A stretch of 63,966 nucleotides of DNA, counting the filler, from Reclinomonas americana ATCC 50394 (Eukaryota): assembly GCA_048213135.1 (NCBI GenBank). It is 11 parts of 11 records of this genome, joined end to end, with 100 filler letters (N's around TTAATTAATTAA, not from the genome) between each part and the next. Parts side by side here need not be neighbours in the genome. Positions count along the whole stretch, not along the records: positions 46,520 to 55,518 come from AFZH01020976.1; 10 more parts are not named here. The stretch is one strand, 5' to 3'. Within the stretch, counting starts at the first letter, position 1, and every line of letters starts with the position of its first letter. The translations under genes were made by a program, and so were the position numbers. This document shows, in pieces, positions 47,258 through 55,459 of this stretch. The notes beneath the pieces are model-generated. The model had not been told where the DNA came from. It did no database searches and saw only the letters and a list, made by a program, of their open reading frames with translations.

Positions 47258-48073
47258 TTAGAGCTTGTGGCTGGCCACACGCTTGGCGGCCAGATCCAGC
47301 TCGCGCTGGCCCTTCGACGTGATGTAGCGACTGCGCACACACAGCAACGAATCAGTCCCCTGTTCCTGCTGTTGCCGACGACGACGCTGCTACAGCCTGG
47401 TTCCTGCTGCTTCTGCACACTCACCCCTTCTCCTTGGTCTGCACCAACTCTGCGCGCTCCAGCTCTTGCAGCACGTGGCGGATGATGCCACCAGCAGCAA
47501 TACCCTGGCGGTTGGGTTGGCTTCCGCGGCGCTTGCAGCCACCGAACTTCTTGCGCAGGTAGCCCACACCCACACCCGGCTTCAGGTACACCTTGCGCAG
47601 GCACGCAGCTAATGGAAGAGCGAGTGAGCAACAGAGTCGACATGTCGTCCTGCGTGCACTCTCATGACAATCATCACACGCACCAGCGCGCACGTAGTAC
47701 CAGTCGGGATCATAGGGTGACAGCTCCTTGAAGCAGGCAGTCTTCACGTGCTGTTGATTGAAAGGGAGAAAGAGAGCGATCAGAGGCTACTTTGGTGATT
47801 CACACACACTCAGACACGCGTGCGCAACATCGAGCCACTCAGGCAGACGCAGTGCGCCCTGCGACTTGAGCTGCTTGGCGAACTCGGTGACGAGGTCCTT
47901 TGGTGCGACGTCCTTGACTGCGCGCATGTCGCACATGCACATGTCAGCCCCACTCACACACACTCACTCGCTCCCACACACGCAAACATCGACATCCCAC
48001 ATATTCCTTCCACTGCGCGTGTATGTGTGAGAGTAGTAAGGTGAAGGAACGCACCAACGACAGCTGAGCTCAT
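47258..48073 (-). CDS. RPS19: 40S ribosomal protein eS19, 5 exons
   Basis: Spliced: MSSAVVVKDVAPKD...PEWLD|HVKTACFKELSPYDPDWYYVRA|AACLRKVY...GRYITSKGQRELDLAAKRV. Confidence 0.96.
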
Positions 48074-48661
48074 GTTTTCCGTTCACCGCGACACGAACTG
48101 GTTGAGTAAGTAGAATTCCACCAGTCCGTTCCGATCAATGGCCTTACACCATCACTCAGCCCACATTGTGAGTACAGGTCGCCACCTCCTGCTCTCCTCT
48201 TTGTGTGTATGTGTCATGTGTATTGAGAGACAGCAGCGTTGGTGTCGATCAGTCAGGCAGCGGGCAGCAAGTGTGTGTGTGTCTGTGTGTGTGAGTGACA
48301 TGCATGTGCATGTCCATGTACGCCGCCCCTCTTACCACGCGTGTGTGCACTCGTCGCTCGTGCTGGTGTGTGTTCTAGTGTGCATGTGTGTGCCACGTGA
48401 GCCGTGCGTGTGGCTGTGACTCTCTGTGTGTGTGAGTGTGTGCATGAAGTGGTGTGAGGGGTGAGAGTGACATGGCGCGCCAGTGTGTGTGCGTGTGTGT
48501 GTGCAGTGCGGCAGTAGAGTGATGCGTGTGTGCGCAAGAGAGAGACTGGGCGTGCAGGGGGTGTCATGTTGATTTCAGGTCGTGAGTCAGTCATGACCAG
48601 CCATGCCACACGCTCACTCTCTCTCTCTCTCTCCTCCTCCTGCACGCGCACAGCTTCCTCC

Positions 48662-49470
48662 ATGCCGAACTCGTACGGTTACCGCGCGCGCACGCGTGAC
48701 TTGTTCAAGCGCAAGTTCCGCCAAAATGGCATGGCTTCGCTGAAGACCTTTTTGACCGTCTTCAAGGTCGGCGACATTGTGGACGTGGTGGCCGATGCTT
48801 CTCAACAGAAGGGTGAGCAAGCTCTACCGTGATGATGAAGGAGTGGAGTGGGATGCGAGGGATGCATCGGTCCTTTGTGTGTGACATGGAGACAGAGAGG
48901 CAGTGATCATCCACTGCAGCATGATGATGAGAATGATAGTTTGCATGAATGCATGCTGACTCTGCTGCTGCTGTTGTTGTTCTCTAGGTATGCCGCACAA
49001 GTTCTACCATGGCAAGACCGGCTACGTGTGGAACGTGACTCCCCGCGCTGTGGGTGTGGAGATAACCAAGACTGTTGCGTACACGCAGATGGAGAGAGAC
49101 AAGCAAGCAACCAGCCTGGCAGAGTAATCGTGCTCACTGTTGTCAACACCTCCAGGTCGGCAACCGCGTGCTCCGCAAGCGCATCAGCGTCCGCATTGAG
49201 CACGTGCGCAAGAGCAAGAGCCGAGATGCCTTCCTCCAGCGCGTCAAGGAGAACGACAAGCAGCGAGAGGCTCACAAGGCTGGCGGTGAGCGATTGTGCT
49301 TCGCACACACAAAGCACAATGTGCGTTCTCGTGGTCGCTGACTGCTTTGCAATGCAGCTCCCTTCGTCTCGACACGTCGCCAGATGCCTGGACCCAAGAC
49401 TGGTGGCATTGTCAAGTTTGCCAAGGCACCAATTGATGTGGCGGCCGAGAAGTTCGAGATCGTTGTCTAA
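48662..49470 (+). CDS. RPL21: 60S ribosomal protein eL21, 4 coding exons (likely 5'-UTR intron 48168-48653)
   Basis: [15 protein letters not shown]...KVGDIVD...[14 protein letters not shown]...|[20 protein letters not shown]. Confidence 0.97.
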
Positions 49471-49654
49471 AGGATTCGGGCGTGTTGCCGACGGTGGTTT
49501 GGCGCGGTGATCGCACTCTGCTTTTGGGCACTCCCCAGCGTATATTCGTTTGTGTGTGTGTGCAATGGTGGCGTGTGGTTGTTGTGTCGGCTGAGTACAA
49601 ACACACAAAATCTACAAGAGCAGTCCCCCCAACCCACGTTCACTTTGCTCTTTG

Positions 49655-50921
49655 TCACATGGGCCACACCACGCCGCCCATGATCATGTCGACGAGCCCC
49701 ACTGGTTTCTGCGCACCTCGATCTCCAGCTGCCGCGGCTGTCGCCGCCATACTCGTTGCGCCCGCCGCCGCTGTTCCGCGCACCATGCTGCCCATGATGA
49801 AGTCGAGCAGGTGGTCCGGCACCGCCTCGCCGCCACCGCCTCGTCCCTGCGGTGCCACTGGGGCGGCCGATGCTGCGCCGCCAGACGAGGACGAGGACGA
49901 GCTGGTGGTCGTGGTGGTGGCTGCAGTCGAAGGCGATGTGGTGTGCGTGAGCCGCTGCCGCAGCTCGTCTTGTATGCGGATCTTGTTGCGCACGGCAGGC
50001 GGCTACACAAAGCCACCACGTCTCAGTCTCCGGAAAAACGGCAAGGAGCCTGGCACACACACATACGTACCGAAAACGCTTCGTCTTCGCGACCGTCAAA
50101 GCCCTTGGCCTTGGTGCGCTTCCGGGCGTTGATGAACCCTGCGCACAACAAACCCCACACAGTCAGTGGTACTCGCGACACAACACGAACTGTTTTTCGC
50201 TTCGCACAGTTGTTGACTTGTTTCTGCAGAGGCCAGTGAGCAATACAAAAACAGTTTCAGTATTTTTGTGACGTCCTGCACGCAACAATGGTGAGGCCGG
50301 TCTCGGCGGCCAGCTGTGCCTTCTCGTCGTCGTCAGGATATGGACTGCGAAACAAGCAAAGGGTGAGCGGATTGTCTGTCTCACGGATCGTCGAGCACGC
50401 AACTGCTGACGATTTTCGTGAAACCACGAGCGCAGAATGTGGGTCGACAACTCTGGCAGCAACTTGCTGCGCTTGCGCGCCGCCGCCAACTCCACCGTCA
50501 GCTCCTCCAGTTCCGTCTCGCACTGCCGCTTCAGCTGATTGAGCGAGCGATCGCGCGAGGAGGAAGCCGGTGACGCCATGATCGGCGACATGACACTGGC
50601 AGGCACGGAAGGCACGGCTGGCGCAAGCACAGCCTCCAGATCACGCTCCATGTCGGAGATGTGCTGCTGCATCACGGCCTCCCACTGGGTGCGCTGCCGA
50701 TCGACGTCGGCTTTCAGCTGGCACAGCAGCGACACGGCACGAGTGAGAAACGTCTCTGCGACATTGTCGAGACTGCCGCCGAGCTCTCCATCGTCGTCGT
50801 CGTCGACGACCTCGTCATCAAGCATGCCCACATCCTCGTCGACATTCTCCAGCTCAAAGGTGGCGCGAAACGAGTCCACCAGCTGCCGCCACAGCACATG
50901 GGCACGGATCCTGCTCTCCAT
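49655..50921 (-). CDS. KNOX-like TALE homeodomain protein (MEINOX-like + ELK-like + homeodomain), 335 aa; exons 50921-50404, 50344-50287, 50223-50208, 50138-50071, 50002-49655
   Basis: Homeodomain [57 protein letters not shown]; upstream IRAHVLWRQLVDSF (KNOX1-like), ETFLTRAVSLLCQLKADV...EAVM (KNOX2-like), LKRQCETELEELTVEL (ELK-like); exon lengths sum to 1008 nt in frame. Confidence 0.85.
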
Positions 50922-51285
50922 CGATGATCGTCGGAAGAAAGGCACACTCACACCACAACAGCACTTGCAGGCGGCAAGACGCGGCGGATCGGGGGAACAG
51001 CAACCGTCAGGCACTGCCGCAATCGACAAGAGCAGTCGGCGCAGGAAAAAAACGGAAGAACCCGACCAGAGAGACTTACAGTGATGTGCTGCGTGACACT
51101 TATTCTTCCGCTCTTTCTCCGCGAGACAACTCGTGTCGAACTCGCCAATCATTTGTTCTTTTCATCCAGTGCAGCGGTGAGCGCGCCACCTGCAGGCGGT
51201 GAGTGTGGATGTGCGCGCGTCAGATTTCTTCTCACTGACTGCTGATCTCTCTCACACTCGACACAGAGAGAGAGAGAGAGGGAGA

Positions 51286-52598
51286 ATGCTGACCGACTGT
51301 GGGTTCCACGACGAGCTCGAGTTTGGCTTCCCACTGGCCACCACCGACTACTTCCCAGGCAGCAAGCACACGGCCATGGATCCACTCGACAACGACGATC
51401 TCTGGTCCTCACTCTCCATCGACATGTTCCTGATGGCCTCACTGGCCTCACCTCCTGCGCTTCTACCTCCACCTCCTCCACCGCCTGCTGCACTGCTGCT
51501 TCAGTCGTCGCCAGTGCCACGCATGCTCGAGGCACTGGTGAGCGGCCACCAATCGATCAGGCAGGCGGTGGAGGACGCGAGTCGAGCGGCAACGGCGGCT
51601 TCCATATGCGGCTTGTCCACTGATAGTTCGCGCCAATCGCGATTACTGGAGCTCCAGTTTCCGCGAGTGGCCAGCGCCAGTCGCTTTGCGTCGCATGTGC
51701 GCGATGAAGTGTGGCGCCGCTGGTCGGCGGCCCGCCAGATCCTGCTGGCAACGGTGGAGCGCATACTGCATCAGTCGCTGGATAATATGGCCGAATGCGG
51801 CGATGATGATTACGACATTGCGACTCTGGTGCTGTTACCGGCCTCGGCGATGCGTGCTCTGCTCTGCAGACTGGCCGATCTCGTGCGGATGCGCACGGTG
51901 CAGGTGGCGGTGGCGGCTGCCGATGCGCGCCTGGTGCAGTATCTGCGTGGCGTCGAGAGCTCGCTGGTACAACCGCCTTTACCGGCGCCGGTACAACGGT
52001 CATCATCGTCGACAACAACAACAACAACGGTGGCAACGGCGGCAATAGCAGCCAGCATCGGCTGCAGCCTGCCACCTCCTCCAGTCCTCCATCAAATGCC
52101 ACTGCTACCACCGCCACCACCACCGCCACCACCACCTATGCCGCGATCGCGGCCACTTGTGCGGTCGCCGATAGCACGAACGCGCTGCAACAAGCTGTCG
52201 GAGGACTCGGTTGGCCCGCTGCGCGACTGGTTCCTGTCGCACGCCCACCACCCGTACCCAACGACTGCCGAGAAGAGGAATCTGGCGTTCCTGACCGGTC
52301 TCCAGGAGCGTCAAGTGAGCAACTGGTTCACCAACATGCGAGGTTTGTCACGACGACCACGCTGCTTACTCTGCCCAACTCACCTCCTCCTTTTGCTGCT
52401 GACCCAGTGCGCCACTGGAAGGCAGTGCGAGAAGGCGGCTCGCCCAGCGTCGGCCAGTCGGGCACCGTCGATTTGGCGCGTCGCCGCCACAGTGCACCGG
52501 CAACCGCTCACTACCGTGTGAAGGAAGAGAACGAAGAGGACGAAGAGGAAGAAGAAGAAGACAACGACAGCGGCAGCGGGTACGCTCGCCGGCGGTGA
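51286..52598 (+). CDS. BELL-like (non-KNOX) TALE homeodomain protein, 415 aa; exons 51286-52342, 52408-52598
   Basis: Homeodomain KLSEDSVGPLRDWFLSHAHHPYPTTAEKRNLAFLTGLQERQVSNWFTNMR|VRHWK; the RVRxWK end resembles plant BELL WFINARVRLWK; subclass assignment is tentative. Confidence 0.85.
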
Positions 52599-52806
52599 TG
52601 AGAGGGGAAAAATGAAGGCGACCATCGACGCTTCGGATACGCTAATGGGTGGTTACGCATATAATAAGCCGGTTTCCCTCACGATTCACATACTGTGTGT
52701 GTTTCTTTTCTCGCTCCTGTAACAAGCACACACGCACGCACTCACACACAGACAGACAGACAGTCATTGCACAGAATACAGGCATACTCCAACCGCGACC
52801 TTGCAC

Positions 52807-55459
52807 TTAATGTCGCGACTTGTTGCCGCTCTTGCCCGAGGCGGCGGCGGCAGGTGCGCCGGCCGCTGACGGCGCGGCAGAGCCGCCTGGCGATGCCTTG
52901 GCGTGCGCGGCGCTCTTCGAGGGTCCAGGAGGCGGCAATGACGAGGCGGCCGACACAGCCGACTGGCCGACCGACGGCGGCGACTGTGAGGTGGCCTTAG
53001 ACGGGCCGGTGCCCACCGGGCTGCCGATGCCGCGGTGAGAGGCGGCAGCGGCGGCAGCAGCAGCAGCTGAGCTGGCCGACGACGGCGAGGTGCCAGCAGA
53101 GCCAGCGGCGACGTTGGCGGGGATGTTGGGTTGCGCGTACGGATCCGGGCGCGGGCACGGTTGCACGCCCCAGATGAGCTTGGCGTACTCGCCCACCGAG
53201 CGGTCGCTCGAAAAGTGGCCCGAGAAGGCCGTCGACAGAATCGATCGCTTGATCCACTCCTGCTGGTTGCGGTACAGGTCGTCCACGCGCTCCTGCGCCT
53301 CGAGGTAGTCCGCAAAGTCGTAGCCCGTAAGGTAGTAGTCGTTCGGGCCGTCAATGGCGTGCAGAATGCTGGCAAACAGCTCGGGGTCGCCAAACGTGCC
53401 GGCGCGGATCAGCTCCTTGACGCGCTCCAGGCGCGAGTCCTCCAGGAACTCGCCGCTCCTGCGGAAGAGGAGGAGAGAGAGAAGGATAAGTGAGGGGGAA
53501 GAAGGGAAGGGGGGAGGGAGGGGAAAGAGGGAAAAGGGGGAAGTGAAGGGGGGAAGGGAAAGGAGGGGGAAGGGAAAGGGGGAAAGGAGAAGAAAAAAGG
53601 CAAAAGGACGAGGGAAGGGAGAGGAGACGGAGGCAAGGAACGGAAGTCGTCAGGAGACGAGAGGAGCGAGATTGAGGACAGGACGAGTGAGGATGAAAAA
53701 AAAAGAGGAGGCAAGACGTGCGGGCATAGCACGACAAGGGACTGATGTGCGGCCATCGAACTATGAGAGAGAGAGAGAGAGAGACCTTCCCCATCCTCTG
53801 CTCCACCCACTCTCCAGATCACAAACTCACCGAACGCGATCACGAGCCGTGGCCACGTCGTCCTTCAGCGTACCAAAGATGAACATGTTCTCTGAGCCGA
53901 TGCGCTCCGCAATCTCAATGTTGGCGCCATCCATGGTGCCGATGAGCAGGCAGCCGTTCATCGCAAACTTCATGTTGCTGGTGCCCGACGCCTCCGTGCC
54001 GGCAGTGGAAATGTGCTGCGACAGATCCGAGGCCGGGATGATGACCTCGGCCAACGACACGTTGTAGTTGGGCAGGAACAGCAGCTTGAGGTACTGGTTC
54101 GTCTCCGGGTCCGAGTTGATCACGTCGCCCACCGAGTTGACGAGCTTGATGATGAGCTTGGCCATGGCGTAGCCAGGAGCGGCCTTGCCGCCAATCATCA
54201 CCGTGCGCTTCACCACGTCGCTGCGCTCCGCCGGCGTCATGCGCTTCAGGCGGTCGTAGCGGTAGATCACGCTTAGTACGTTCAGCAGCTGGCGCTTGTA
54301 CTCTGCGGTGCGGAGGGGATGAGACGAGAAGTGATAAAATTTAGAAGGGAAGCTGGTGGAACAAACCGTGGATGCGCTTGATCTGCACGTCGAACATCGA
54401 GTCGGTGCTGATCTGCACGCCCAGCGTCTGCTGCACGTACTCGGCCAACACACGCTGTGCGGAGAAGAGATAATTAGAAACATGCGTCTCGTCGCAGACA
54501 TCACACTCTTTCTCTCTTTCTCGCTCACCTTGTTGAACTGACGAATCTCAATCCACTCGCGCTGCAGCTCGGGATCCGAGACGTGATCGGCCAGATCGGC
54601 CAGCTTCTCCATGTTGAGCAGCCAGTCGTCCTGCTCGATCCACTTGGAGATGAGGTCGGCGTACTTCGGGTTGGCAATGGCCAGCCAGCGGCGCGGGGTG
54701 ACACCGTTGGTGACGTTGAAGAAGCGCTCGGGGTACATGTCGGAGAACTCCTTGAACACGTGCGTGCGGAGAATCTCCGAGTGGATCATGGCCACGCCGT
54801 TGACGGCGTGCGAGCCCACAATGGCCAGGAAGGCCATGCGCACCATCTTGGTGTCGCCCTCCTCGATGATGCTCATGCGGCGGATGCGATCAATGTCGCC
54901 AGGGTAGCGAGCGGCAACCTCCAGCAGGAAGCGGTGGTTGATTTCAAAAATGATCTGCATGTGGCTGCACCGACGACAAGGTCAGAAAAAAGTGAGGGTG
55001 ACGGGGGGAGGAAAGAGATGAAACAAAAAAAGCGACTGACCGAGGCAGCAGGTGCTCCATCAGCGGCACCGGCCACTTCTCCAGGGCCTCCGGCAGCACA
55101 GTGTGGTTGGTGAAGGCAAAGACACCGCGGGTGACGGCCCAGGCCTCGTCCCAGCCCATGAACTCGTCGTCGACGAGCAGGCGCATCAGCTCGGCCACCG
55201 AGATGGTCGGGTGCGTGTCGTTCAGCTGGATGACGACCTTGTCGGCCAGCTGGGTCAGCGGGCGGTGCTGCTTCTTGAAGCGGCGCACCACATCCTGCAG
55301 CGTGGCGCTCGAGAAGAAGTACTGCTGCTTCAGGCGCAGCTCCTTGCCGACGTAGGTGTTGTCGTTCGGGTACAGCACGTACGACACGGACTCGGCACGG
55401 CGGCGGTGCTCAATGGCCGAGATGTAGTCGCCCGAGTTGAAGGACTGCAGGTCGAATTC
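52807..55459 (-). CDS. PYG: Glycogen/starch phosphorylase (GT35), 5' part lost in gap
   Basis: [77 protein letters not shown] (PLP lysine); [11 protein letters not shown]. Confidence 0.97.

Follow-up and report, generated by a model that had tools for sequence, protein, structure and literature searches.

In a window of 63,966 nucleotides of DNA from Reclinomonas americana ATCC 50394 (assembly GCA_048213135.1; 11 parts joined end to end, with filler between them), two intron-containing homeobox genes of the TALE class (named for a loop extension of three amino acids) diverge from each other on the part that comes from AFZH01020976.1. One is on the minus strand at 49655-50921, the other on the plus strand at 51286-52598, and their start codons are separated by the 364 bp of 50922-51285. 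Judged by its coding sequence the pair is real and intact once spliced, each gene encoding a full TALE homeodomain of 63 residues, and the reading we favor, with middling confidence, is that of an old, linked and co-regulated pair whose products act together, most likely as a heterodimer. A first-pass annotation of the same DNA had given the position, strands and spacer of the pair, all of which agree with the gene models rebuilt here, and had presented the genes as a KNOX-like and a BELL-like partner. That there is a divergent TALE pair holds; the KNOX label has no hidden Markov model (HMM) support, though a place on the MEINOX side is plausible, and the BELL label is unsupported.

Both gene models were built from sequence logic, that is from open frames and GT-AG boundaries, in a window where G+C is about 57% and introns are short; all five coding introns of the pair are GT-AG and 59-69 nt long (coordinates are in Table 1). 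Those of the minus gene, introns 1 to 4, measure 59, 63, 69 and 68 nt. Its first exon ends after the first two bases of the HPYP His codon, CA and T being joined across intron 1, and in the unspliced frame from the ATG at 50921 the homeodomain is interrupted after ...WFHENRQ. The earlier proposal that this homeodomain is spread over four exons is borne out, as it runs through exons 1-4 of the spliced model, and the WFINARKR segment is indeed there, its W codon split by intron 3. The HPYP loop claimed for both genes is present in both homeodomains, with the three-residue TALE extension.

Two features of the minus introns deserve mention in their own right. Introns 1 and 2 (50345-50403 and 50224-50286) open with the identical nine bases GTTGCGTGC (repeat D20), an unusual donor in comparison with the GTGAG-type donors of the adjacent eL21 gene; such a donor may mark a splice site that is weak or regulated, or be left over from an intron duplication. 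Intron 3 (50139-50207) has a length, 69 nt, that is a multiple of three and contains no in-frame stop (ORF, open reading frame, 50023-50256), so that its retention would put 23 residues where the W48 junction should be and abolish helix 3, yet not shorten the protein. In its C-terminal tail the minus protein has the 10-residue motif L[LV]D[FM]IMG[SG][MV]V twice, the DNA copies (repeat D7) being 85% identical; the repeated motif matched no Pfam family and may serve in interaction or activation as a short linear motif.

The plus gene encodes 415 amino acids in two exons. Its first exon specifies an acidic and hydrophobic N-terminus, proline runs, a helical region at about amino acids 76-227 and then the homeodomain. 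WFTNMR and VRHWK occur as had been reported, split from each other by the intron, and EVWRRW and AMRALLCRLADLV are likewise in the protein.

In a typical homeodomain the distance from F20 to W48 is 28 residues; in both of the proteins here it is 31, as befits the 63-residue TALE homeodomain. Pfam Homeobox_KN (PF05920) recognizes plus exon 1 at E 6.4e-15 with 55.2 bits (cut-off 24), and the general Pfam Homeodomain model does so at E 7.7e-7. The minus exon 2 frame alone (ORF 50260-50640) is matched by Homeobox_KN at E 1.3e-5 with 25.3 bits, just over the cut-off. Homeobox matches are confined to 2 of the 271 stop-to-stop ORFs of at least 110 amino acids in the window (2 of 135 and 0 of 136), both of them at the TALE pair. 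Searched against PDB sequences, plus exon 1 has 24 matches, of which 22 are TALE homeodomains, including PKNOX1 (1.2e-7), MEIS1/2, TGIF, Extradenticle/PBX1 and MAT alpha2, with one SIX1 and one non-homeodomain entry making up the rest; alignment to the non-TALE SIX1 requires a 3-residue gap.

By hand counts over 50 aligned homeodomain positions, the minus homeodomain is identical to human MEIS at 29/50 and to the plus homeodomain at 25/50, and the plus homeodomain is identical to PKNOX1 at 21/50 and to PBX1 at 20/50. Upstream, the minus protein has I-R-x-H-x-L-W...F-R, then an acidic linker and then S-L-D-N-V, an order of elements that by eye resembles the KN-A/KN-B stretches which Table S2 of Joo et al. 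2018 (PMC6219170; cited here and below from the portion of the article and its tables that was available) gives for a glaucophyte KNOX and for human MEIS, and the S-L-D-N-V helix of the minus protein aligns by eye with the KN-B or 'LDNLM' stretch. Because of the homeodomain identity to human MEIS together with the KN-A/KN-B-like motifs, a place for the minus gene on the MEIS/KNOX (MEINOX) side is plausible. The minus helix 3 sequence, NNWFINAR, recurs in the choanoflagellate proteins termed PBX-like by Joo et al., and so is not class-diagnostic when taken alone.

The recognition helix of the plus gene reads WFTNMR, every TALE inspected in Table S2 of Joo et al. reads WF[I/G/S]N, and WFTNMR has no occurrence within the first 400 characters per entry of that table. 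Position 50 is T, not Gly as in PBX1 (WFGNKR), and the choanoflagellate PBX-like proteins in the available table likewise do without G50. The protein carries LDNM, which is found once in the table, in human PBX1; LDNLM is also found once there, in the MEIS entry. The description of the gene as BELL-like finds no support: there is no POX match at E ≤ 10 and no intron at the BELL-type position 24(2/3), and WFTNMR is divergent. The plus gene would best be regarded as a divergent TALE specific to its lineage, its recognition helix being unusual (T50, M52), and with those residues its product probably contacts a different DNA half-site.

When the two proteins are compared with each other by blastp, only the homeodomains align (29/58 identical, E 1.4e-13, a score reached by 0/300 shuffles). 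The recognition helices differ, with I50/A52 in the minus protein against T50/M52 in the plus protein, and the C-terminal tails are unrelated. Homeodomain introns interrupt the minus gene at c(2/3), 42/43 and 48(1/2) and the plus gene at 54(1/2), in the numbering of Joo et al. as given in the available text, and no position is common to both. Outside the homeodomains the proteins are practically unrelated but for one short, weak motif, SLDN[VM]AE ... LLC[QR]L.AD[VL].R.RT, which each of them has some 100-135 residues upstream of its homeodomain. Since the homeodomains are 50% identical and share no intron position, the two genes, as far as their sequences tell, are not recent copies, and any single local duplication that produced them is old.

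The short spacer has to contain both 5′ untranslated regions (UTRs) and both promoters, from which a bidirectional promoter is inferred, and for the same reason co-regulation is the simplest expectation. A candidate 5′-UTR intron of the plus gene (51199-51266) has a CTGAC branch-like site and a length that fits the range of the coding introns; if it is real, plus transcription starts deeper in the spacer and the distance between the promoters is well below 364 bp. The spacer holds one CCAAT/TGATTG site, at 51145-51151. Neither TGAC (4 seen, about 2.7 expected) nor TGAT (4 seen, about 2.6 expected) is enriched in it, and beyond low-complexity runs there is no inverted DNA repeat connecting the two TALE genes. 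The 17-mer AATC[T/G]ACAAGAGCAGTC occurs at 49609-49625 and at 51021-51037 with 16/17 positions alike (repeat D12), one copy being just 3′ of the minus-gene stop codon and the other within the shared spacer; the two could be there by chance or could be a common regulatory element.

Taken as an old heterodimer pair, the locus would work as follows. The minus gene would supply the MEIS/KNOX-type (MEINOX-like) partner and the plus gene the divergent one; the two would have come from one TALE gene duplicated locally and in inverted orientation long ago, or from an ancestral linkage that has been kept, and not from chance. A bidirectional promoter would co-regulate them, and their products would dimerize through helical N-terminal regions as MEIS/PBC and KNOX/PBX-GLX-BELL do. 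The program under their control might be one of differentiation, of encystment or of passage between life-cycle stages. By likeness to every tested TALE pair, the simplest function to suppose is that of a heterodimer. According to the available portion of Joo et al. 2018, many protist lineages have one MEINOX-type and one PBC-type TALE, heterodimerization has been shown in three prasinophyte species, and in Table S1 most of the protist genomes surveyed have 2-12 TALE genes, with 0 in Bodo saltans. A bolder reading, akin to the compatibility cassette considered below and likewise improbable, is that the locus preserves, still linked, the proto-TALE duplication that Joo et al. propose to have yielded heterodimer pairs lineage by lineage.

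Several results weigh against this reading of the pair. Pfam was scanned at E ≤ 10 with four pieces and five sub-pieces of the regions outside the homeodomains, and none of the nine matched KNOX1, KNOX2, ELK, Meis_PKNOX_N, PBC, POX or Mating_N, in a scan that distant similarity could escape, since most matches above about E 0.1 are removed by the HMMER filters. The KN-A/KN-B resemblance of the minus protein is one seen by eye alone, and a phmmer search with minus exon 1 among 1.84 billion representative proteins returned 0 at E ≤ 0.001. Single-sequence AlphaFold2 (AF2) predictions give helices at 2-22, 48-102 and 119-171 for minus exon 1 and three long helices for plus amino acids 66-245, both at low confidence (mean predicted local distance difference test, pLDDT, of 61 and 58). 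The N-terminal regions of the two proteins give a weak local alignment, built on the SLDN[VM]AE motif, whose score, 46, is reached by 12/300 shuffles. In the available text of Joo et al. 2018, introns at 44/45 and 48(2/3) of the homeodomain are regarded as ancestral and the latter is treated as a MEIS/KNOX marker; the TALE pair has no intron at either position, and the minus intron at 48(1/2) is one base off. A shared promoter, moreover, predicts both partners in the same cell, unlike the gamete-split GSM1/GSP1.

The domain labels that had been attached to regions outside the homeodomains get no support from Pfam. Neither the 172-residue minus exon 1 nor its two sub-pieces has a match at E ≤ 10 to support KNOX1/KNOX2-like segments; what was described as ELK-like has no ELK match at that threshold, AF2 showing there a low-confidence helix that enters the homeodomain; and the supposed POX-like stretches of the plus protein are not matched by POX (PF07526) at E ≤ 10, whether in exon 1 or in its three sub-pieces. 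PBC (PF03792) likewise has no match at E ≤ 10 in the plus protein. The sole Pfam matches outside the homeodomains are to coiled-coil families at chance level.

Other searches for relatives were similarly unproductive. A word-seeded protein search with plus exon 1 gave 0 matches, and with the plus homeodomain region alone it gave 2 candidates with common words, 0 of which scored. Among metagenome contigs there were 510 pattern matches to plus exon 1 and 563 to minus exon 1, with 0 confirmed by tblastn. The minus N-terminus had two chance-level matches in a PDB sequence search (E 0.32 and 1.2), and an ESM Atlas feature search with the plus N-terminus found no usable match. None of five motifs of the TALE pair is in the available Table S2 of Joo et al. 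2018, and the Monosiga and Salpingoeca TALE proteins in that table differ from those of the pair. Complex prediction with minus amino acids 1-150 and plus amino acids 66-245 gave an ipSAE of 0.00 in both runs, in a setting where the controls did not fold, and so speaks neither for nor against a complex.

How the two genes came to be side by side bears on what they do. By a rough estimate, with a handful of TALE genes among some ten thousand genes, two would be neighbors by chance about 1 time in 1000, and because such a neighborhood is improbable, local duplication or selected linkage is likely. High gene density and the short divergent spacers that are common in the window make a chance meeting of two unrelated TALE classes easier to imagine, and the common SLDNxAE motif, which points to a shared origin, makes it harder; we give this explanation little credence. 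Another possibility, which we regard as real if rather doubtful, is that the pair is the relic of an old inverted copying of one TALE gene whose copies are now independent, acting as monomers, as homodimers or with other partners, and remain adjacent because the genome is compact. The motif common to the N-terminal regions agrees with it, as does the plus homeodomain being nearer to its neighbor than to PKNOX1 or PBX1, in what is a comparison with few sequences, and divergent pairs such as eS19/eL21 are common in the window. The minus homeodomain, in contrast, is nearer to human MEIS than to its neighbor. Homeodomains of 50% identity only, the lack of a common intron position and recognition helices that differ also speak against it, and in every lineage that Joo et al. 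examined experimentally, as described in the available text, the two TALE classes heterodimerize.

The suggestion of a mating-type-like or ploidy-switch cassette would have both TALE partners on each haplotype, with only non-self products dimerizing after cell fusion; it would amount to the logic of basidiomycete HD1/HD2 made from two TALE genes with allele-specific N-terminal regions, outside the fungi, and seems to us improbable. Gene arrangement is the one positive support for this low-probability reading, the divergent layout from a short spacer matching that of basidiomycete homeodomain (HD) loci. The N-terminal regions are helical (by AF2 at low confidence), fast-evolving and without database relatives, and the best ESM Atlas hit of the minus N-terminus is a basidiomycete HD1 cluster, at a score of 0.77 that lies below the noise level and is a lead only. 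In the portions of the literature available, TALE pairs bring about the change from haploid to diploid in green algae, Galdieria and brown algae, and the sex-determining regions U and V of Bostrychia contain a TALE pair. Set against this, both genes here are TALE where the fungal loci pair a TALE with a non-TALE gene, and Mating_N has no match at E ≤ 10. Housekeeping genes lie on both sides (eS19, eL21, glycogen phosphorylase, Coq4, condensin), there is no receptor or high-mobility-group (HMG) gene among the 271 long ORFs of the window, and no sign of repeat accumulation was seen in 49400-52800.

The basidiomycete HD mating locus (bE/bW, SXI1/SXI2) has an HD1 (TALE) and an HD2 (non-TALE) gene that are divergent and whose dimerization regions are N-terminal. 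The likeness to the Reclinomonas locus is of two homeodomain genes diverging from a short spacer; the differences are that here both are TALE without a Mating_N match, and that the host eS19 does not look opisthokont-like (over a 62-residue stretch only, a plant protein scores 75 bits, followed by Euglena, tomato and Toxoplasma, with yeast and human at about 43-45 bits).

Closer in kind are the MEIS/PBC and KNOX/PBX-GLX-BELL pairs as described in the available portion of Joo et al. 2018. They too consist of two TALEs with different helical N-terminal regions, one member, like the minus gene, having a MEIS/KNOX-like N-terminus and homeodomain, and, as in both proteins here, the homeodomain has an LDN-type 'MEINOX motif' upstream of it. 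The Reclinomonas pair differs from them in being without an HMM-detectable KNOX, MEIS, PBC or POX domain. It differs from the TALE pair of Monosiga, whose members are on scaffold_23 and scaffold_2 to go by their gene-model names in the available table, in being adjacent and divergent. In Bostrychia moritziana (bioRxiv 10.1101/2025.02.11.637652, available in part) the TALE partners, PBX-type and KNOX-Red1, are tied to the sex-determining region with one partner per haplotype, whereas a single haplotype here carries the two, 364 bp apart. Two further TALE-TALE pairs, Chlamydomonas GSM1/GSP1 and Ectocarpus ORO/SAM, trigger a diploid or sporophyte program; their expression is gamete- or stage-specific in the accounts available, in contrast to the co-expression that a shared promoter here predicts. 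The available portions of the literature examined contained no statement that GSM1/GSP1 or ORO/SAM are linked, and in the literature searched no head-to-head TALE-TALE pair was found described. TALE pairs are already known, and their head-to-head linkage would, as far as that literature extends, be a new arrangement.

The genes that flank the TALE pair are housekeeping ones, and the first half of the window has WD40 genes, an Arf-like gene and a class-3 lipase. Directly upstream of the pair, eS19 on the minus strand and eL21 on the plus strand form a second divergent pair, and head-to-head gene pairs seem common in the genome. On the other side, the glycogen phosphorylase gene appears to have a long Ala/Ser/Pro-rich low-complexity tail after its catalytic domain (52810-53100, minus strand), and in the ORF at 52807-53649 the Phosphorylase match stops at residue 162 of a 280-residue frame. 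With a database that included NCBI, EukProt and MMETSP eukaryotes, the best full-coverage identity of the glycogen phosphorylase ORF is 53%, green-algal, amoebozoan (dictyostelid) and chytrid matches being mixed, and its scores against animal and Arabidopsis enzymes are similar. A 304-nt contig of sequencing run X1 matches 49400-49602 only, the remaining matches of the run being to low-complexity sequence; this contig differs from the window in nothing but one additional TG (49550), within the (TG)n tract of the 3′ region of eL21, a difference in microsatellite length. The 880 N bases of the window form ten pairs of 44-N runs 12 bases apart, between 15805 and 60635, a regular pattern that looks like masking and not like assembly gaps.

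Table 1. Features of the TALE pair and of its surroundings, in positions of the whole window (aa, amino acids)
Feature	Position	Strand	Remarks
Minus TALE gene, coding span	49655..50921	-	5 exons, 335 aa plus stop; spliced frame open over 1008 nt
Minus exon 1	50404..50921	-	Helical N-terminus (aa 1-147), then N-terminal arm and helix 1 of the homeodomain
Minus exon 2	50287..50344	-	HPYP loop (from H) and homeodomain helix 2
Minus exon 3	50208..50223	-	16-nt micro-exon; KQVNN and first base of W48 codon
Minus exon 4	50071..50138	-	(W)FINARKRTKAKGFDGREDEAFS, homeodomain helix 3; completes WFINARKR
Minus exon 5	49655..50002	-	Low-complexity C-terminal tail, stop codon
Minus homeodomain span	50101..50480	-	aa 148-210, 63 residues, broken by introns 1-3
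L[LV]D[FM]IMG[SG][MV]V copies	49781-49810 (aa 285-294); 49667-49696 (aa 323-332)	-	Exon 5
Spacer between start codons	50922..51285	.	364 bp; GC 0.56
Possible 5′-UTR intron of plus gene	51199..51266	+	68 nt, GT...AG; inferred from sequence only
Plus exon 1	51286..52342	+	aa 1-352 plus one base; homeodomain as far as WFTNMR
Plus intron	52343..52407	+	65 nt, GT-AG; homeodomain position 54(1/2), Joo et al. numbering
Plus exon 2	52408..52598	+	(V)RHWK..., acidic tail, stop codon 52596-52598
Plus homeodomain span	52174..52427	+	aa 297-359, broken by intron
TMF1-like	38.8-40.0 kb	+	ORF/Pfam scan
Condensin subunit 2	40.3-43.2 kb	-	ORF/Pfam scan
Coq4	44.6-45.4 kb	+	ORF/Pfam scan
eS19	~47424-47786	-	ORF/Pfam scan
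eL21	~48660-49470	+	Divergent from eS19
Glycogen phosphorylase	52.8 kb to at least 55 kb	-	ORF/Pfam scan
Sedolisin-like gene	62.3 kb	+	ORF/Pfam scan

TALE heterodimers have been proposed as an ancestral eukaryotic device for sensing gamete fusion. If both genes are co-expressed housekeeping regulators, the pair adds modestly to TALE diversity in a lineage that is under-sampled, and if the mating-type-like reading were true, a fungal-style self/non-self homeodomain locus would have evolved outside the fungi. A linked divergent TALE-TALE pair would be a third arrangement beside partners that are unlinked, as in Monosiga by gene-model names, and partners split between sex haplotypes, as in Bostrychia; it could show how partner pairs arise through local duplication, and interaction, co-expression and allelic diversity can all be addressed at one 3-kb locus.

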